64,000 bases of DNA from Anaerolineales bacterium (GCA_016785015.1 JADHTJ010000003.1:24979-88978); one strand, 5' to 3'. Shown: positions 55,452 through 64,000, counted from the stretch's first letter. Notes: a model not told the origin generated them from the letters alone. Translations and numbers: made by a program.

Positions 55452-56336
55452 ATGAAACGGATTTTTATCTTATTAGTATTGTTGATTTTTCTACTTTCAG
55501 GATGCGGTTCTCGGACCAAAACATCCGATACCACCAACCCCCAAACTTCTTCCCAAACCATCGAAAATAAAGGCTCTGATACTATCGTCAACCTGGCATT
55601 GGCCTGGGCTGAGCGCTATCAGAAAATTCGTCCTGAGGTGCGTCTCTCGGTCACAGGGGGCGGCTCTGGTACGGGTATCGCGGCGTTGATCAACGGCACG
55701 GTCGATATCGCCAACGCCTCCAGGCGGATCAAACCTGAAGAGATCGAGTCCGCTCAAGCCAATGGGAGTGACCCGATTGAATTCGTCATCGCTCGCGATG
55801 CCATCGCTGTGATCGTCAACCTGGAAAATCCCGTTGACGAACTAACCCTACAGCAGATTTCAGATATCTACAGCGGGAAGATCAATAATTGGAGCGAAGT
55901 CGGGGGCGATGATCGCCCCATTGTGCGCCTCTCACGCGAAACAAATTCTGGAACTCATGTTTATTTTCTGGAAGAAGTTCTTCGTCTCGGAGAAAAAGAA
56001 AATAAAACACTCTTCTCCACAAATACGCTTTTGCTGCCTTCGTCTGAGGGCATCGGCGCAGAAATTCGCCTCAACCCTAATGCCATCGGGTATGACGGGC
56101 TTGGTTATGTTACTCATGAAATGAAAGTCATCGCCGTTTCTGCTGATCCTGAAATAGGTTATGTCTTGCCCTCTGCGGACAGTGTTAACAATGAGGAATA
56201 CCCCATCGCCCGAGATCTTTATATGTACTCTAATGGTCAACCGACCGGCGTGATCGAAGAGTATCTGGCTTGGATATTATCCCCCGAAGCACAGACTATT
56301 GTCACTGAACTTGGGTTTGTGCCCATAAATCCTTAA
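55452..56336 (+). CDS. pstS: Phosphate ABC transporter substrate-binding lipoprotein PstS
   Basis: Lipobox LLSGC. GSDTIVNLA...TGGGSGTGIAALINGTVDIANASR is the PBP-like phosphate-binding pattern. Confidence 0.88.
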   Translation: MKRIFILLVLLIFLLSGCGSRTKTSDTTNPQTSSQTIENKGSDTIVNLALAWAERYQKIRPEVRLSVTGGGSGTGIAALINGTVDIANASRRIKPEEIESAQANGSDPIEFVIARDAIAVIVNLENPVDELTLQQISDIYSGKINNWSEVGGDDRPIVRLSRETNSGTHVYFLEEVLRLGEKENKTLFSTNTLLLPSSEGIGAEIRLNPNAIGYDGLGYVTHEMKVIAVSADPEIGYVLPSADSVNNEEYPIARDLYMYSNGQPTGVIEEYLAWILSPEAQTIVTELGFVPINP

Positions 56337-56352
56337 GCAATACGAGGCTCTT

Positions 56353-57249
56353 ATGCAAAGTGCTCTCAACTGGCGCGAATATATCATCACCCGCCTGATC
56401 AAGATTTCAGGCTATTCAGCGATTGTATTCGTCGGACTGATCTTTTTCTTCCTGTTGCGGGAGGGCTTACCAACGCTAAGCGAAGTCGAATTCAAAAGCT
56501 TGTTTGCGACTCGCTGGTACCCGATTGAAGATTATTTTGGCATTTTGCCCCTGATTGGGGGATCGCTGATCGTCACCATCGGAGCAACAATGATCGCAGT
56601 CCCCTTTGGAGTTGGCGCGGCGGTTTATATCTCCGAGATCGCTCCCCGCTGGATGAGGGAAATCCTTAAACCCTTGGTAGAAGTTTTAGGTGGCCTTCCT
56701 TCGGTTGTCTTAGGGTTTTTGGGGATACTGGTCTTATCTCCCTATCTGCGAGTTTTCCTGGATCTACCTACCGGATTGACAGCATTGGCTGGCTCACTCC
56801 TTTTGGGTGGCATCGCTATCCCAACGGTTGTGTCTGTCTCCGAAGATGCCCTGGACGCGGTGCCGAAATCTTATCGTGACGCTTCGCTGGCGCTGGGCGC
56901 TACCGAATGGCAGACCATCTGGCGAGTGACCTTGCCCGCAGCCCGTTCGGGAGTACTTACAGCCATCATGTTGGGGGTTGGCCGCGCCATCGGCGAAACC
57001 ATGACAGTAATGATGGTCACCGGTAACGCTCCCGTGTTACCCAAGGGATTAGGCGCCCTCTTTGCCCCCGCTAGAACCATGACTGCGACAATCGCCGCCG
57101 AAATGGGTGAAGTCGCTAATGGCAGTGTGCACTACCACATTCTGTTCTTCATTGGTATCGTCCTTTTTCTCATATCACTGATAGTCAATGTGACAGCATC
57201 GGCGGTGGTATTCCGCCAGCGCAAGCGCCAGGAACGCATTCTTTCATAA
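56353..57249 (+). CDS. pstC: Phosphate ABC transporter permease PstC
   Basis: Six TM spans with the EAA-like loop SYRDASLALGATEWQTIWRVTLPAA. Confidence 0.88.
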   Translation: MQSALNWREYIITRLIKISGYSAIVFVGLIFFFLLREGLPTLSEVEFKSLFATRWYPIEDYFGILPLIGGSLIVTIGATMIAVPFGVGAAVYISEIAPRWMREILKPLVEVLGGLPSVVLGFLGILVLSPYLRVFLDLPTGLTALAGSLLLGGIAIPTVVSVSEDALDAVPKSYRDASLALGATEWQTIWRVTLPAARSGVLTAIMLGVGRAIGETMTVMMVTGNAPVLPKGLGALFAPARTMTATIAAEMGEVANGSVHYHILFFIGIVLFLISLIVNVTASAVVFRQRKRQERILS

Positions 57250-57251
57250 TC

Positions 57252-58118
57252 ATGGCTTCTTCAACTTCCTCACAATCACGCTATTTCACCCAGCGTCTGG
57301 GTTTTAGCTTCTTGACTTTGATGACTGTATTTACAGTCATTCCAATTTTGGCCGTAGTCATCTATATCGTTGTTCTCGGCTCACCGGCTATTTCTGGAGA
57401 GTTTATCGTAGGCTTCCCTCGCGAGGGAATGCGCGCCGGGGGTATCTGGCCTGCAATCGTGGGTACGTTATACCTGACACTAGGAACAGCAATTTTTGCT
57501 GTTCCCTTAGGCATCGGTGCAGCAATCTATCTCTCGGAGTATGCATCCGATAACCGCTGGACACGTTTGATTCGCATTGCCATCATTAACCTGGCAGGCA
57601 TTCCATCCGTTGTGTACGGTCTATTTGGGTTAGGATTATTCGTACTTTTCCTGAATTTTGGGACCAGTATCCTGGCTGGGTCTTTAACACTTTCGATCAT
57701 GACCCTCCCAGTGATCATCAGCACCACCGAGGAAGCGCTACGAGCTGTTCCCCAGGCTTTCCGCACAGTGAGCATTTCTGTTGGTGCTACTCAATGGCAG
57801 ACCATCCGCCGGATCGTGCTACCACAAGCGCTACCAGGTATGCTAACAGGTGTCATCTTAGGTTTGGAACGAGCCGCGGGGGAAACGGCTCCAATTCTGT
57901 TTACTGTAGCGGCTTTTTTCTTGCCCAGGTTGCCAAACACCCCCTTGGACGCCACCATGGCCTTACCGTACCATCTGTTCGTTATCTCCACGCAAGTTCC
58001 AGGGATGCCCATAAAAATTCAATATGGTACTGCGTTAGTATTGTTGGTATTCGTGCTCAGCATGAACGTCATCGCTACCATCATCCGCTCTCGGGCGCGC
58101 GCCCGTCGTCAATGGTAG
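57252..58118 (+). CDS. pstA: Phosphate ABC transporter permease PstA
   Basis: Permease with loop AFRTVSISVGATQWQTIRRIVLPQA, directly after pstC. Confidence 0.88.
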   Translation: MASSTSSQSRYFTQRLGFSFLTLMTVFTVIPILAVVIYIVVLGSPAISGEFIVGFPREGMRAGGIWPAIVGTLYLTLGTAIFAVPLGIGAAIYLSEYASDNRWTRLIRIAIINLAGIPSVVYGLFGLGLFVLFLNFGTSILAGSLTLSIMTLPVIISTTEEALRAVPQAFRTVSISVGATQWQTIRRIVLPQALPGMLTGVILGLERAAGETAPILFTVAAFFLPRLPNTPLDATMALPYHLFVISTQVPGMPIKIQYGTALVLLVFVLSMNVIATIIRSRARARRQW

Positions 58119-58125
58119 GGTCCTT

Positions 58126-58896
58126 ATGAAAAAGATAAAGACACCCAAAATCAAGATCAAGGACCTCACTTTACATTACTCCGACGGCAATGAATCTTTG
58201 CGGGGAATCAGCATGGACATTCCCAAGAACGCGATCACTGTGATGTTTGGTCCTGCGGGCGGTGGTAAATCCAGCCTGCTGAGAGTTCTCAATCGCCTAA
58301 ACGATCTCACAGATGTTGCTCAAATCGAAGGGAGTGTTCTGCTCGATGAAGAAGACATCCTAGACCCTAAAATTGATGTCATAGCATTACGGCGGCGTGT
58401 GGGTATGGTTTTCGCTCGACCGGTTGTGCTGCCGATGAGCATACGTGAGAATTTGACATATGGATTAGAAGTAGCTGGAGAAAAGGACAACACTACGCTG
58501 GATGCAGCTGTCGAACGCAGCCTGCAGCAAGCTGCCCTGTGGGATGAAGTTCAAGATCGACTGGAAGAACCGGCGGTAGTTCTCTCTGGAGGGCAGCAGC
58601 AACGCTTATGTCTGGCCCGGGTATTGGCCCTTGAACCAGAGGTCATCTTGTTGGATGAACCCACCAGTGGCCTCGATCCTATATCTACTGGGAAAGTTGA
58701 AGAATCCCTGCAAGAACTAAAAGAAGAGTACACCATCATCCTGGTACCCCACTCCGTACAACAGGCTGCTCGCACCGCAGATTACGCCGCATTTTTCCTG
58801 CAGGGAGAATTGGTAGAATACGCCCAGGGTGATAGTTTATTCATCAATCCCAAAGATGCGCGCACACAAGATTATGTGGAGGGTCGCTTTGGGTAG
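58126..58896 (+). CDS. pstB: Phosphate ABC transporter ATP-binding protein, divergent PstB paralogue
   Basis: Same overall PstB layout (LNRLNDL..., LSGGQQQRLCLARVLA), but with atypical Walker A GPAGGGKSS, Walker B region LDEPTSGLDP and H-loop VPHSVQQA. Confidence 0.8.
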   Translation: MKKIKTPKIKIKDLTLHYSDGNESLRGISMDIPKNAITVMFGPAGGGKSSLLRVLNRLNDLTDVAQIEGSVLLDEEDILDPKIDVIALRRRVGMVFARPVVLPMSIRENLTYGLEVAGEKDNTTLDAAVERSLQQAALWDEVQDRLEEPAVVLSGGQQQRLCLARVLALEPEVILLDEPTSGLDPISTGKVEESLQELKEEYTIILVPHSVQQAARTADYAAFFLQGELVEYAQGDSLFINPKDARTQDYVEGRFG

Positions 58897-58953
58897 TATG
58901 GTTGGATTATCAACCTAAACCATTGTAGGGGAGAATTATTGGTTGGTCAAACA

Positions 58954-58981
58954 TTGTTAACGGACTGAATAATGCTATAAT
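58954..58981 (+). promoter_or_regulatory. Possible internal promoter for phoU
   Basis: TTGTTA (58954-58959), 16-nt spacer, TATAAT (58976-58981). This would start transcription just before the structured element. Confidence 0.3.
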
Positions 58982-58993
58982 TTTAAACCAATT

Positions 58994-59106
58994 AGGACTT
59001 ACGCAGTTTGTGCATTTCCAGGGTAGGAACCCAACCGCGTTGGGTGTCGGATTACCTGTTCTATGCCCAACATGGTTGGGCTGGCTACCCCAAGTTCGTA
59101 AGTCCT
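58994..59106 (+). ncRNA. Candidate structured RNA element / phoU leader (nested four-helix fold)
   Basis: P1 AGGACTTACG (58994-59003) pairs with CGTAAGTCCT (59097-59106). P2 GGGTAG (59021-26) pairs with CTACCC (59085-90). P3 ACCCAAC-CGC-GTTGGGT (59029-45). P4 GCCCAAC-ATG-GTTGGGC (59065-81). P3 and P4 share arm sequences, so an alternative P3(3')-P4(5') pairing is possible. Confidence 0.4.
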
Positions 59107-59146
59107 GCCAATATTGGTTCGTAGTAAGGTTAGGAAGGCAAAAAAC

Positions 59147-59830
59147 ATGACTAGAGAGACATTAGATAAGAAGATACAAGGGCTGCTTGATGATGTCCTT
59201 ACTTTGGGCAGTATGGTCGAGGAAGCAATCCTCGACTCAGTTAGGGCCCTCAAAAAACGCGATCAAGAATTAGCCAAAAAGATTTATGAAGGCGATAAAA
59301 AGATCAATAAAAGACGTTATAAGATAGAGAGAAGCACCGTTACTGTTATTGCCACCCAACAACCCATGGCCAGTGATCTACGAATTTTGGCTTCGATTAT
59401 TGAAGTTGCCGGGGAAATTGAGCGCATGGGCGACTATGCCAAAGGAATCGCGCTGATAACTTCTCGGCTTGGCGATGAGCCCCCAGTCAAGCCGTTAATC
59501 GATATCCCCAAAATGGCCGACCTCACAGCTGATATGCTCCATCGTGCTTTGGGTGCCTTCGTTGAAGCAGATGTCGATACAGCCTTAGAAATCCCCAGTG
59601 AAGATGATCAAGTTGACCATCTTTATAATCAGGTGTATCGAGAACTGCTTACCTGTATGATGGCTAATCCCGAAACCATCGACGGGGCGACTTTGCTACT
59701 TTGGGTAGCCCATAATCTCGAACGCGTTGCCGACCGCGTCACCAATATTTGTGAGCGCACACGTTATGTGGCCACTGGAAAACTCAAGGATATTGATGTA
59801 TCCGACGACGAACAATTCTTAGATGACTAA
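59147..59830 (+). CDS. phoU: Phosphate signalling complex protein PhoU
   Basis: The ATG at 59147 follows AGGAAGG. Two PhoU repeats with E(x)3D-type motifs (IERMGDYAKGIA; NLERVADRVTNICE). Confidence 0.88.
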   Translation: MTRETLDKKIQGLLDDVLTLGSMVEEAILDSVRALKKRDQELAKKIYEGDKKINKRRYKIERSTVTVIATQQPMASDLRILASIIEVAGEIERMGDYAKGIALITSRLGDEPPVKPLIDIPKMADLTADMLHRALGAFVEADVDTALEIPSEDDQVDHLYNQVYRELLTCMMANPETIDGATLLLWVAHNLERVADRVTNICERTRYVATGKLKDIDVSDDEQFLDD

Positions 59831-60108: not shown

Positions 60109-60480
60109 ATGTCTGCTGGAAAAGTCATTGCCTATATCTTCGCTGCCATACTGATCTTCTTCGGTGTTCTGTTCATTTGGGCTACTTTCAGCCCTGAGGG
60201 GCAAATTGGATGGCTCCTTGTCGGAATCATTAGCGTTGTAATCGGATTTGGGGTTATTTGGTTCGCCGGTCGAAAGAAAACATCTACTGCCGGAGAGCAC
60301 GGCGAAGGCGTTACCTTGAAAATTGATCTACCCGGAGATGTCAGCCTCGATACGCTCAAATGTCAATCTTGTGGAGGCTCCCTCACGGCCGATAACATCC
60401 AAATGCTGGCAGGTGCTCCAACAGTCAGCTGCCCATTCTGTAATACAACCTATCAAATAACCGAAGAACCGAAGTGGTAA
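60109..60480 (+). CDS. Small membrane protein (2 TM) with C-terminal Cys4 zinc ribbon
   Basis: GGAGG Shine-Dalgarno sequence. Two hydrophobic spans, then CQSCGG...CPFCNTTY. Confidence 0.6.
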   Translation: MSAGKVIAYIFAAILIFFGVLFIWATFSPEGQIGWLLVGIISVVIGFGVIWFAGRKKTSTAGEHGEGVTLKIDLPGDVSLDTLKCQSCGGSLTADNIQMLAGAPTVSCPFCNTTYQITEEPKW

Positions 60481-60516
60481 AAACGTTCAAACGTTGAACC
60501 TTGAGGAGAATGCAAA

Positions 60517-62193
60517 ATGAATAAGCGATTACTCACCTCAGCATTATTGCTGATCCTGTTATTCGCCCTCCCGATTAGCGCGCTGGCGCAAACATATTAC
60601 TTCAGCCTAGATCAAGAGATTGTGAATGTCTTTTGGGAGGAAGACGGCACCCAAACTCTTGATTACGTCTTCGTCTTCAGCAACAGCCCTAGCGCTTCTC
60701 CCATTGATTTCGTCGATGTGGGATTCCCCAACGACAATTACAGCCTTTCTAATGTCAGCGCAGAGGTGGATGGCCATCCAATCCTCAATATCGAATACTC
60801 TCCCTACGTCGACAGCGGCGTGGCATTAGGATTGGGAAGTAATGCCATAAAACCAGGCCAAACCGGTCGCGTGCACGTCAAGGTTACAAGCATTCGCGGT
60901 GTACTCTTCGTCGACAGCGATGACAGCAATTACGCTAGTGCCGTTTTCAGCCCCACCTGGTTTGGCTCTGAGTATGTTTATGGATCGACAGACCTACAGG
61001 TAACTTTCCACTTACCCCCTGGCGTACAGCCAGACGAGCCCCGCTGGCATGCATCGCCTTCTGGATGGCCATCAGAACCAGCCACAGCCCTCGATCAGGA
61101 AGGTCGAGTGGCCTACACCTGGCGCAACACCAACGCCAATGCCCATACCCAATACAAGTTTGGCTCATCCTTCCCAAAAACCTATGTTCCCGCAAGCACA
61201 ATTGTCTCCCCAGGCTTATTTGAACGCTTAGGCATCGATCCAGAAGCAGTCACTGGTTTCTTGTGCTGCGGTGGTATCTTCGGTTTGATCGCATTAATCA
61301 CCTGGGCTGGAGCCACCAGCGCTCGCAAACGAAAAATGAAATACCTGCCTCCCAAGATCCGCATCGAGGGGCATGGCATCAAACGCGGTCTAACAGCTGT
61401 CGAAGCGGGGATTCTGATGGAACAACCCGCCGACAAAGTTCTGACAATGATCTTATTCGCCGTTTTGAAGAAGGATGCCGCCAGCGTCGTTTCGCGTGAT
61501 CCCCTGAAATTAGATGTTACTACGCCCTTGCCTGAAAAACTGCGCTACTATGAGCGCGATTTCCTAAACGCTTTCTCCGAAGGGAGTAAGAAACAACGCA
61601 CTCTAAACCTTCAAGATCTGATGGTCAAGTTGATCAAAAATGTTGGCAAAAAAATGAAGGGCTTCAGCCATAAAGAATCGGTCGCATACTACAAAAGCAT
61701 CATGCGCAAAGCCTGGCAGCAAGTCGAGGAGGCCGAAACTCCCGAAATCCGCAGTGAGAAATACGACGAGCATATGGGCTGGACCATGCTCGATAAAGAT
61801 TTCGACCGCCGTACCGAAGATGTATTTCGCACCGGACCCGTCTTTGTACCCATGTGGTGGCATCGCTACGATCCAGGCTGGGGTCGCTCAAGGTCAGTAA
61901 CACCGAAACCCATGGCTACTGGTGGTAGATCTGGCAGCGGCCAATCCGCGCCTTCCATGCCCAACCTGCCAGGTGGAGAGTTTGCCGCCTCAGTGGTTGG
62001 CGGCATGCAGGGCTTCGCCAGCGACGTGGTTGGCAATGTCACTAACTTCACCAACCGCATTACTAATAAAACCAACCCTGTTCCCAAGTCATCCTCCTCA
62101 GGTAGCGGCTGGAGCAGCAGCGGTGGCAGCAGTTGTGCTTGCGCCTGTGCTTGCGCTGGATGCGCCTGTGCCTGTGCAGGTGGTGGACGATAA
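60517..62193 (+). CDS. DUF2207-like exported/membrane protein with Ser/Gly-rich linker and C-terminal alternating Cys-Ala tail
   Basis: Signal peptide (LLLILLFALPISALA). N-terminal beta-rich domain starting YYFSLDQEIVNVFWEEDGTQTLDYVFVF. Single central TM (GFLCCGGIFGLIALITWAGA) followed by RKRKMK, so the C-half is cytoplasmic. The last 21 aa are SSCACACACAGCACACAGGGR. Confidence 0.7.
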   Translation: MNKRLLTSALLLILLFALPISALAQTYYFSLDQEIVNVFWEEDGTQTLDYVFVFSNSPSASPIDFVDVGFPNDNYSLSNVSAEVDGHPILNIEYSPYVDSGVALGLGSNAIKPGQTGRVHVKVTSIRGVLFVDSDDSNYASAVFSPTWFGSEYVYGSTDLQVTFHLPPGVQPDEPRWHASPSGWPSEPATALDQEGRVAYTWRNTNANAHTQYKFGSSFPKTYVPASTIVSPGLFERLGIDPEAVTGFLCCGGIFGLIALITWAGATSARKRKMKYLPPKIRIEGHGIKRGLTAVEAGILMEQPADKVLTMILFAVLKKDAASVVSRDPLKLDVTTPLPEKLRYYERDFLNAFSEGSKKQRTLNLQDLMVKLIKNVGKKMKGFSHKESVAYYKSIMRKAWQQVEEAETPEIRSEKYDEHMGWTMLDKDFDRRTEDVFRTGPVFVPMWWHRYDPGWGRSRSVTPKPMATGGRSGSGQSAPSMPNLPGGEFAASVVGGMQGFASDVVGNVTNFTNRITNKTNPVPKSSSSGSGWSSSGGSSCACACACAGCACACAGGGR

Positions 62194-62230
62194 TCAGTGG
62201 GTAGTTAATGGTGATTAGTGGATAGAAAAT

Positions 62231-63637
62231 ATGATTAACGGGATTCAATCTTTAATTACAAATCTCAAATCTGCGGTCAGCCGTCAGCCATCAGCCGTCA
62301 GTACAGCATTACCGCCACCTGGTTTGCATCACTTCACCCGTGAAACTCCAGAAGAGCACTCGCGCATCCATCTGCGCGTCGATCCTGATGGACACGGCAC
62401 ATTGATTGTTAACGCCAATCAGGTGGTGCATTTCAACCCAACGGCCACGCTGATGGCATACCTGACCCTCGAAGAAATTTCCAGAGAAAAGGCCATCCGC
62501 CAGATTCAGCGCACCTACAATGTACCCAAGAAGCTGGCCCAACTTGACTATACGCATTTTCTCAACGATCTTGAAGTAATCCTGCGCCCAGATGGTTGCC
62601 TAGCCTGCACCTTGGACGAATTGGAAATCGTTGCACCCTTCAGTGCCCGTCCCATGGCTCCCTATCGTATGGATCTGGCACTGACGTATCGCTGCAACGA
62701 CGATTGTGCACACTGCTACAATGCTCGCCCGCGCGATTATCCTGAATTGCCCACTCAGACTTGGAAGGAGATCATTGACCGCTGTTGGGAATTGAGCATC
62801 CCGCATATCGTTTTCACCGGAGGCGAACCAACCTTACGAGACGATCTTCCAGAGCTGATCGCCCACGCGGAATCTAATGGCCAGATCACTGGGGTCAATA
62901 CCAATGCCCGGAGGCTAAGCGATCCCCATTTCGTAGAAGCCCTCGTAAAGTCCGGCCTGGATCACATCCAAATCACGGTTGAGTCCCATGACGCACAAAT
63001 CCACGACCAGATGGTTGGAAAACACGGTGCATGGAATCAAACTATTGCGGGTCTGCGCAATGTACTCGCCAGCCCACTCTTCGTGATGACCAACACCACC
63101 ATGCTGCAAGATAATTACAGTTCTCTTAATGAAACTCTCGATTTCTTGGCGGGTTTAGGAGTCCCAACAGTGGGGTTGAACGCCCTGATCTACTCGGGGC
63201 GCGGGTTGTCGGTTGGTACGGGTCTAAGAGAAAGTGAATTGCCTGCATTACTCGATTTGGCGCGCCAGAAAACTGAAGCCCACGGACAACGCCTGATCTG
63301 GTACACGCCGACGCAATACTGTCAATTCGACCCCATGCAGTTCGACCTTGGAGTCAAAGGATGCACCGCGGCCCTCTACAATATGTGCGTGGAGCCTGAT
63401 GGGGGCGTACTGCCCTGTCAATCGTATTACCAACAATTGGGCAATATTCTGGATGATCCTTGGGACTCTATATGGAATCACACGCTTTCCACCTCGATCC
63501 GAGAAAGAGATTACATTCCCGATGCTTGTGCAGATTGTGCAGTATTAGGCGAGTGCGGCGGCGGATGTCCTCTGGCTTTAGAAGCAGACCCATCATCCAT
63601 AATCCCAATTGAAAACATTGAGTTGATCTCTATCTAA
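62231..63637 (+). CDS. Radical SAM / SPASM-domain enzyme with N-terminal PqqD-like (RRE-like) extension
   Basis: CxxxCxxC cluster motif LTYRCNDDCAHCYN. GGEPTL SAM-binding motif. C-terminal auxiliary-cluster cysteines (GCTAALYNMCVEPDGGVLPCQ...CADCAVLGECGGGCP). The ~130-aa N-terminus LIVNANQVVHFNPTATLMAYL...AIRQIQRTYNVPKKLAQLDYTHFLNDL resembles PqqD-type peptide-binding domains. Confidence 0.8.
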   Translation: MINGIQSLITNLKSAVSRQPSAVSTALPPPGLHHFTRETPEEHSRIHLRVDPDGHGTLIVNANQVVHFNPTATLMAYLTLEEISREKAIRQIQRTYNVPKKLAQLDYTHFLNDLEVILRPDGCLACTLDELEIVAPFSARPMAPYRMDLALTYRCNDDCAHCYNARPRDYPELPTQTWKEIIDRCWELSIPHIVFTGGEPTLRDDLPELIAHAESNGQITGVNTNARRLSDPHFVEALVKSGLDHIQITVESHDAQIHDQMVGKHGAWNQTIAGLRNVLASPLFVMTNTTMLQDNYSSLNETLDFLAGLGVPTVGLNALIYSGRGLSVGTGLRESELPALLDLARQKTEAHGQRLIWYTPTQYCQFDPMQFDLGVKGCTAALYNMCVEPDGGVLPCQSYYQQLGNILDDPWDSIWNHTLSTSIRERDYIPDACADCAVLGECGGGCPLALEADPSSIIPIENIELISI

Positions 63638-63642
63638 AAAAT

Positions 63643-64000
63643 ATGGCAAATTTCATTACCCTGCTTCGTTTCCCTCTGCTATTCGTTTATGTAGCATTGC
63701 TTTATACAAACAACGCCATTCTCCAATTTTGGTGTGTGCCGTTTATAGTTTTCATCATTCTGATGGATATGTTTGACGGCTTGATCGCCCGGGCACGCGG
63801 CGAGGTGAGCTTATTGGGCAGCGTGCTGGATATCGCCACAGATCGCACATTCGAGATCATTCTGTGGGTGGTCTTTGCCCATCTTGGATTGATCCCAATT
63901 GTCATCCCCCTCATTGTGATCACCCGAGGCACCACCGTTGATGCTGTGAGGGCCGTTGGCATGAAAGATGGTCTTGCAGCCTTCGAACAAGTCAGACATC
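63643..64000 (+). CDS. CDP-alcohol phosphatidyltransferase family protein (3' end cut by window edge)
   Basis: My own translation from the ATG at 63643: MANFITLLRF...DMFDGLIARARGEVSLLGSVLDIATDR matches D(x)2DG(x)2AR...G(x)3D(x)3D. The frame stays open to nt 64000, and this ORF is not in the supplied track. Confidence 0.75.
   Translation, partial: MANFITLLRFPLLFVYVALLYTNNAILQFWCVPFIVFIILMDMFDGLIARARGEVSLLGSVLDIATDRTFEIILWVVFAHLGLIPIVIPLIVITRGTTVDAVRAVGMKDGLAAFEQVRH

Follow-up and report, generated by a model that had tools for sequence, protein, structure and literature searches.

A candidate RRE-radical SAM-SPASM maturation module for the Cys-Ala tail of a large membrane protein in Chloroflexota and Bathyarchaeia

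What does a radical S-adenosylmethionine (SAM) enzyme of the peptide-modifying type do when it is encoded directly downstream of a large membrane protein? The question is raised by a stretch of 64,000 nucleotides (nt) from an Anaerolineales bacterium (GCA_016785015.1 JADHTJ010000003.1:24979-88978; this whole stretch is called the window below), the last 3.9 kb of which are filled by three closely spaced open reading frames (ORFs) on the plus strand. The first gene of the module (60109..60480, +) encodes a membrane protein of 123 amino acids (aa) with two transmembrane (TM) segments and a zinc ribbon. The second (60517..62193, +) encodes a bitopic membrane protein of 558 aa, the proposed substrate, that ends in SSCACACACAGCACACAGGGR with seven cysteines alternating with alanines. 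The third (62231..63637, +), characterized with Pfam and AlphaFold, encodes a 468-aa enzyme with a RiPP recognition element (RRE; RiPP, a peptide made by the ribosome and modified after translation), a radical SAM core and a SPASM domain. A first-pass annotation of the window had described these ORFs, the enzyme motifs, the PqqD-like N-terminus of the enzyme and the Cys-Ala tail, and had read the tail as the candidate substrate of the enzyme. ORF calls and Pfam searches found all of these features in place, and the reading itself gained support from gene linkage, from the precursor-like anatomy of the tail and from the lack of a rival substrate gene. Judging from the sequence evidence set out below, we lean towards regarding these genes as a self-contained protein-maturation module that acts on the Cys-Ala tail.

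The class of the enzyme follows from its motifs. It carries CNDDCAHC (the CxxxCxxC signature) at residues 155-162 (62693-62716), the GGEPTL motif, and a Cys-rich SPASM-like C-terminus with cysteines at residues 364-446 (63320-63568); the earlier assignment of these features was confirmed by Pfam matches to Radical_SAM (E 3e-24) and SPASM (E 2e-8). The SPASM motif CX2CX5CX3C corresponds to C433-X2-C436-X5-C442-X3-C446, which aligns, together with the upstream cysteines (C364, C378, C386, and C396), to TigE, anSME, SuiB and CteB. When a profile built from 88 orthologues was run against solved structures, the sactisynthase SkfB was the closest (E 7e-22), followed by PqqE, SuiB, anSME and CteB, and the SkfB alignment starts at residue 45, which falls within the N-terminal extension. 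The top Foldseek matches were SkfB, SuiB, PqqE, CteB, TigE and anSME, with SuiB as the second-best structural match. The proposal that the N-terminal extension (residues ~30-118, 62318-62584) is an RRE is supported by this SkfB alignment, by precomputed PF05402 (PqqD) matches in many homologues of the enzyme, by an archaeal orthologue that scores 31.4 bits with the Pfam PqqD model (gathering score 23.4 bits), and by the AlphaFold model (predicted template-modelling score 0.81), in which residues 31-117 form four beta-strands followed by three helices (predicted local distance difference test score, pLDDT, 85-97), that is, the modelled topology of PqqD and RRE domains. By its sequence, the enzyme is a member of the RRE-dependent radical SAM/SPASM peptide-maturase class, since it combines the CxxxCxxC motif, a SPASM domain, an RRE and an adjacent Cys-containing substrate candidate.

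Curated models (Pfam 2025 and NCBIfam June 2026, with PADLOC for defence systems and Rfam for RNA elements) did not place the enzyme any closer. No NCBIfam equivalog was reached at its cut-off (best score NirJ2, 122.7 vs 500 bits; PqqE, 121.5 vs 381; SkfB, 71 vs 300), and the families whose cut-offs were not reached include StsB, MftC, ScmE/F, HxsC, NirJ and AhbC/D. A role in anti-phage defence was considered and rejected, as PADLOC shows partial viperin similarity in the radical SAM core only (E 1e-14); the two membrane proteins of the module have no PADLOC match. A side observation concerns the linker that joins the RRE to the radical SAM core (residues 123-126, window 62597-62608), where Cys123 is conserved in bacteria, archaea and the high-GC lineage L211, and Cys126 in bacteria only; such a residue may be catalytic or act as an additional cluster ligand.

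The neighbourhood of the enzyme was analyzed in two sets of loci. The genome set consists of the best 80 of at least 591 species-representative genomes with a relative of the enzyme, all 80 being Anaerolineae-type Chloroflexota, and the denominators for individual genes (78, 64, and 57) are the loci with enough flanking sequence. The second set comes from a tail-first scan of metagenomes with the degenerate (back-translated) DNA pattern of the tail, which is independent of protein-family models and gave 120 loci (L-numbers are locus labels; L001 is a contig identical to that of the window and extends past the window end). Viewed from the enzyme, the tail gene is directly upstream in all 78 genome loci, with a median gap of ~20 nt and with two tandem tailed paralogues in 8 loci. 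The Zn-ribbon gene is upstream in 64 of 64 genome loci, and a second radical SAM-like gene follows the enzyme in 56 of 57 (Chloroflexota). Viewed from the tail, the enzyme gene is downstream in 98 of the 103 metagenome loci with at least 400 nt of downstream sequence, a homologue of the membrane protein is upstream in 77 of the 78 loci with room for it, and the second radical SAM-like gene is present in 31 of the 32 loci with at least 4.5 kb downstream. The co-occurrence of tail and enzyme that the first-pass annotation had proposed to look for across genomes is therefore seen from both sides, and tails that lack the enzyme are rare. The exceptions, without an enzyme gene, are the lineage of L126 and L192, the lineage of L210 and L212, and two short contigs. 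In L126 and L192, a ~208-aa secreted Cys-rich protein is encoded immediately downstream of the tailed gene. In all the apparent exceptions of the genome set (L029, L031, L033, L039, L081, and cases at contig edges) the tail is present and the ORFs are frameshifted or truncated.

A different neighbour, the CDP-alcohol phosphatidyltransferase gene, starts in the window just after the enzyme (63643..64000, +; only the 5' part, as the window ends there; PF01066 was matched on L001), so the earlier description of the gene order as Zn-ribbon gene, tail-enzyme pair and transferase is correct for this window. The transferase follows the enzyme in only 12 of 57 genome loci, compared with 78 of 78 for the tail gene, which indicates that the lipid genes are a clade-specific insertion and that linkage to the tail is the conserved feature; the enzyme is syntenic with the tail gene and not with the transferase. 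A functional coupling of the enzyme to the lipid genes was rejected on these numbers and because none of these genes occurs in the archaeal loci. In the window's clade only, three lipid genes stand between the enzyme and the second radical SAM-like gene (63643-64000 and L001:11413-13553), encoding the CDP-alcohol phosphatidyltransferase, a PIM-acyltransferase-like protein and a PAP2 phosphatase. The transferase has weak NCBIfam matches to phosphatidylinositol-phosphate and archaetidylinositol-phosphate synthases.

The module is also found in Archaea. Three archaeal loci with wholly different neighbours encode, in this order, a Zn-ribbon protein (112-115 aa), a tailed protein (542-550 aa) and a PqqD-radical SAM-SPASM enzyme (406-454 aa), with neither the second radical SAM-like gene nor lipid genes. 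Identity to the window proteins is 43% for the enzyme, 30% for the membrane protein and 27-32% for the Zn-ribbon protein. The variants with long tails belong to Candidatus Bathyarchaeia, plus one from Hermodarchaeia. The order of genes differs in L211 (Zn-ribbon protein, enzyme, degenerate radical SAM paralogue, tailed protein), and all four genes are kept. Co-inheritance in two domains of life, in independent neighbourhoods and in another gene order, is strong evidence that the Zn-ribbon protein, the tailed protein and the PqqD-radical SAM-SPASM enzyme function together. No other conserved gene that could supply a substrate was found in the module, and no conserved protease or exporter was detected in the bacterial or archaeal neighbourhoods examined.

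The second radical SAM-like gene lies outside the window, ~2.2 kb past the stop codon of the enzyme (L001:13603-14748), and specifies a protein of 381 aa that is paralogous to the enzyme (37% identity over 395 residues, E 5e-72). It retains IPHIVFTGGEPTLR, containing GGEPTL, and a weak PqqD-like N-terminus, and it has one cysteine in all, with neither CxxxCxxC nor the SPASM cysteines. CxxxCxxC is present in none of the 71 copies. From these sequence features, the 381-aa protein is predicted to be a catalytically dead partner, which plausibly binds the leader-like segment of the tailed protein (described below) or heterodimerizes with the enzyme. It does not belong to the pseudo-SAM/SPASM family TIGR04347 (score 55.2 bits, cut-off 525), which it resembles in concept as a radical SAM fold that lacks the cluster motif.

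The tail itself has the conservation expected of a functional peptide. The window contains a single occurrence of the back-translated tail pattern, against none in 100 shuffled versions. The 558-aa protein has 4049 homologues at E<=1e-3, and the same tail ends 118 of 120 homologues spanning 44-100% identity; these 118 sequences underlie the conservation values given here for tail, leader and linker. The last 17 positions of the tail are identical in 117-118 of the 118, down to 44% overall identity. Among 122 metagenomic copies of the tail there are 118 distinct DNA sequences encoding one peptide, and copies paired at random disagree at 57% of their third codon positions. The existence of 118 DNA versions of a single peptide argues for selection on the peptide and not for a DNA repeat, and the freely varying synonymous codons rule out a DNA microsatellite. 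Distant relatives (31-40% identity) have repeats arranged as 4+3, 3+4 or 2+4, unbroken repeats, or 9-11 cysteines in three blocks. In these relatives Ala is sometimes replaced by Val and the central Gly sometimes by Ser, Cys is kept at every second position, and the tails mostly end in GGGR or a near variant (GGGAR, GGVG, GGAG).

In the C-terminal region, three segments can be distinguished. Residues 482-523 (61960..62085, +) form a leader-like motif, P.LPGG.FAASVV.G.Q.F...VVGN.T.FT..ITNKTNPVP, of ~45 residues, with conservation of 0.9-1.0 at many columns and many invariant positions; it is the candidate RRE recognition sequence. The version of the motif shared with Bathyarchaeia is [LI]PG.[DE]FA..[IV]...N[IV]V.N..F[AT]. 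Residues 524-539 (62086..62133, +) are a Ser/Gly-rich linker that is modelled as disordered and varies from 11 to 26 residues in length, with no conservation of its sequence. Residues 540-558 (62134..62190, +) are the core tail CACACACAGCACACAGGGR with its seven alternating cysteines, the proposed site of modification. In terms of sequence layout, the C-terminus is organized like a RiPP precursor (leader, linker, core), here carried by a large protein.

Hydropathy analysis of the 558-aa protein gave a signal-like segment at residues 2-31 and one TM segment at 242-269 that is followed by RKRKMK, and according to the positive-inside rule this basic stretch puts the C-terminal half in the cytoplasm. 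A further stretch of borderline hydrophobicity (308-326) is placed by the AlphaFold model as a helix within the folded domain on the cytoplasmic side. The same model has a beta-sandwich ectodomain (residues ~29-220, pLDDT >90), a TM helix (242-275), a winged-helix plus helical domain in the cytoplasm (294-436), two helices for the leader-like motif (pLDDT ~62-72) and a disordered tail. A function could not be deduced from this fold and the attempt was rejected, because the Foldseek matches were just generic beta-sandwiches (ribophorin-I and the N-domains of M1-aminopeptidases) and no sequence relatives of the protein were found in the PDB. Neither Pfam (E<=0.1) nor NCBIfam has a match for the protein. 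The label 'DUF2207-like' given to it at first did not hold, as PF09972 matched neither the window protein at E<=0.1 nor 30 divergent and 4 archaeal members at E<=0.01; an archaeal member carries the name DUF2207 in one NCBI record. Some loci (L005:10001-12319, P0135, P0141, and others) also have ~770-aa paralogues with the same tail and an apparently duplicated ectodomain, located, where present, between a 556-aa tailed gene and the enzyme gene.

A conventional small precursor peptide was not found beside the enzyme. The gaps within the module in the window are just 36-37 nt, with the enzyme starting 37 nt after the 558-aa ORF stops, and they contain no small precursor ORF, which bears out the earlier remark that none is located next to the enzyme. 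The larger gaps at other loci contain no conserved small ORF; they are occupied by IS200/RAYT-like genes, a PAS protein and other unrelated ORFs, and the possibility of a hidden precursor ORF was rejected. An Rfam search of the window for RNA elements gave no match, and scans of it for promoters and terminators performed no better than on shuffled sequences.

Taken together with the invariant core, the lack of a protease or exporter suggests a permanent modification or a protein-derived cofactor rather than a secreted product, and the following sequence of events can be proposed. The RRE of the enzyme, and probably that of the pseudo-enzyme, would bind the conserved motif in the way a RiPP leader is bound; this would dock the enzyme at the membrane and feed the Cys-Ala core into its active site. 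We consider it likely that the RRE binds the motif at residues 482-523 and that the tail is the substrate, with the Cys-Ala core modified by the enzyme. Reductive cleavage of SAM would generate 5'-deoxyadenosyl radicals, which would abstract hydrogen atoms from carbons in the core's backbone or side chains. The most likely product would be several thioethers from Cys sulfur to carbon (of the sactionine or ranthionine type), with the Ala C-alpha as the easiest acceptor; there are precedents for sactionine links at this atom of Ala. Thioether formation, by analogy with SkfB, AlbA, CteB, PapB and QhpD, is our leading guess for the chemistry, and it is a tentative one to which we give rather less than even chances. 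Such cross-linking would turn a floppy tail into a rigid knot that is still attached to the protein. Less likely than not is a reading in which the module builds a protein-derived cofactor or structural element of a new kind: a ladder of radical-installed cross-links, maybe holding a metal or an Fe-S cluster, at that end of a sensor-like membrane protein which faces the cytoplasm, with the dead paralogue and the Zn-ribbon protein as dedicated assembly partners. If true, this would be housekeeping chemistry of the RiPP type on a full-size membrane protein, in a module common to Bacteria and Archaea of anoxic sediments, and the product may differ from a sactionine or ranthionine.

Several observations weigh against the assignment of the tail as the substrate of a thioether-forming enzyme. 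PqqD reached 18.8 bits in the window's enzyme (E 0.002), which is under the gathering score. The highest NCBIfam scores of the enzyme are to the cofactor enzymes NirJ2, PqqE and AhbD, and not to sactisynthases. The alignments do not single out the ligands of the auxiliary clusters, nor, by extension, a free coordination site where a thiol of the substrate could bind. In L126 and L192 (~33% identity) there is no SPASM enzyme within 2.6-5 kb of the tailed gene, and L210 and L212 have two tandem tailed paralogues and no RRE-radical SAM-SPASM gene within +-10 kb; the Zn-ribbon gene is also missing beside the tail genes of these two lineages (2.6-10 kb). Tails with no enzyme nearby imply that an unmodified tail may work alone, or that the enzyme is encoded elsewhere. 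Finally, an alternating Cys-X-Cys pattern also resembles motifs that bind metals through thiolates.

The same observations feed the strongest of the alternatives, that the tail is an unmodified metal or Fe-S site, similar to metallothionein, on which the enzyme docks through its RRE in order to act on a lipid or cofactor, or with which it exchanges clusters or electrons. In favor of this view are the L126/L192 and L210/L212 lineages, whose tails have no SPASM enzyme nearby, the preference of the NCBIfam scores for cofactor-modifying SPASM enzymes, and two hints of lipid chemistry, namely the lipid genes within the operon in the window's clade and the lipid-modifying radical SAM enzyme GDGT-MAS among the sequence and fold matches. 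The lipid hints lose force on inspection, as the GDGT-MAS match covers the radical SAM core only and the lipid genes are missing from 45 of 57 Chloroflexota loci, as they are from every archaeal locus examined. Moreover, no other conserved candidate substrate gene accompanies the enzyme, and the leader-linker-core layout, as well as the retention of an RRE in the dead paralogue, would be hard to explain if no peptide were recognized. We therefore consider a purely metal-binding tail unlikely.

A further candidate for the substrate is the product of the first gene. Hydropathy analysis of the 123-aa protein gave two N-terminal hydrophobic helices, followed by a cytoplasmic CxxC...CPxC zinc ribbon, and it has no significant match to a curated family in Pfam or NCBIfam. 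Its four cysteines and its C-terminal end are invariant in all 72 bacterial copies, the end being E-[E/D]-P-K-W-COOH (codons ~60463-60477), and EEP[KT]W in Archaea and L211, where the orthologues have 27-36% identity. For the EEPKW end, roles as a docking tag or as another substrate are conceivable. If the Zn-ribbon protein were the true or a second substrate, EEPKW would be cross-linked, e.g. between Lys and Trp as in SuiB and StrB, and the invariance of this end, the co-occurrence of the gene as strict as that of the tail gene (64/64) and the rank of SuiB as second-best structural match all fit this idea. However, the likeness to SuiB is of a generic kind, common to this class of enzymes, and the protein has no leader-like segment, with EEPKW standing straight after a folded zinc ribbon. 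In addition, the L210 lineage has no Zn-ribbon gene beside its tail genes, which means that the two can separate. These points make the Zn-ribbon protein an improbable substrate, and the tail of the 558-aa protein is preferred to it. Least probable of all is that, once modified, the tail is set free by cleavage as a small RiPP, with the membrane protein as an oversized precursor comparable to borosins (which have a C-terminal core on a large protein): the leader, linker and core are laid out as in a RiPP precursor, but neither domain of life has a conserved protease or exporter in the module, the core does not vary among hundreds of species, in contrast to the cores of natural-product RiPPs, and the remainder of the 558-aa protein shows good conservation and a confidently modelled fold.

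Comparison with known systems shows which parts of the proposed module are familiar. The synthases of sactipeptides and ranthipeptides (SkfB, AlbA, CteB, and PapB) share the order RRE, radical SAM, SPASM/twitch and an adjacently encoded Cys-rich substrate. Their substrate is a peptide of 30-60 aa, whereas the present candidate is a tail carried by a membrane protein of 558 aa, its core is invariant, there is no protease or exporter, the curated models are not reached, and the thioether product is putative. The radical SAM/SPASM enzyme QhpD installs permanent Cys thioethers (Cys-Asp/Glu) in QhpC, a small soluble subunit of quinohemoprotein amine dehydrogenase; the target proposed here is instead a membrane protein with Cys-Ala repeats. 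Similar to our proposal, anSME is a SPASM radical SAM enzyme that modifies Cys in a full-size protein, and it is among the structural matches. Its target C/S-x-P/A-x-R is, however, missing from the tail (...CACAGGGR has no C-x-[PA]-x-R), and no gene for a sulfatase turned up in the neighbourhoods of the module. Unlike the present enzyme, anSME is not known to have an RRE.

Paralogous proteins with the radical SAM fold are encoded together in two other cases, TrnC/TrnD of thuricin CD and TIGR04347. The partner in the present module differs from these in that it has no cluster cysteines, keeps an RRE-like domain and is missing from the archaeal version. Two radical SAM enzymes that act synergistically have been reported (PMC12093266). 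With respect to the substrate, the closest architecture is that of the DUF2207-type membrane proteins, which have Gly/Ser-rich C-terminal tails. The arrangement of ectodomain, TM segment, cytoplasmic region and low-complexity Gly/Ser-rich C-terminus is alike, and the present family is set apart by a single TM segment after the ectodomain, an invariant Cys-Ala core and a dedicated radical SAM enzyme.

Full-text searches of the literature found no description of the system, and a survey of RiPPs in anaerobes lists no sactipeptide cluster for Chloroflexi. While the kind of enzyme is known, the new elements are the membrane-protein target, the dead-paralogue and Zn-ribbon partners, and the housekeeping-like spread across two domains. 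Enzymes with the RRE-radical SAM-SPASM layout have been studied almost wholly as makers of small secreted peptides, and the present module is widespread (a relative of the enzyme in at least 591 species-representative genomes, plus Bathyarchaeia) and strictly conserved. If confirmed, it would mean that RiPP logic also serves to modify a membrane protein permanently, and two large families without a match to any curated model would gain a role. It would likewise be a naturally occurring example of an active enzyme with a dead paralogue as its partner, and would offer a short, clean and repetitive substrate for multi-site radical chemistry. The host groups are abundant and poorly cultured anaerobes, for which even a partial functional assignment is useful.

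Two minor features of the neighbourhood complete the picture. An IS200/RAYT-like gene of ~177 aa (HNPPHLF...HYHA) stands between the tail gene and the enzyme gene in L097, L104, L107, L150, L165 and L188, so that several independent metagenomic loci have an insertion at the same intergenic position. Directly upstream of the module, the window contains the pstCAB-phoU phosphate-transport operon (55452-59830), with the gene for the substrate-binding protein at 55452-56336. The phoU gene adjoins the module in many Anaerolineae loci and not in the archaeal ones, and its proximity probably reflects synteny within the lineage rather than a functional link.

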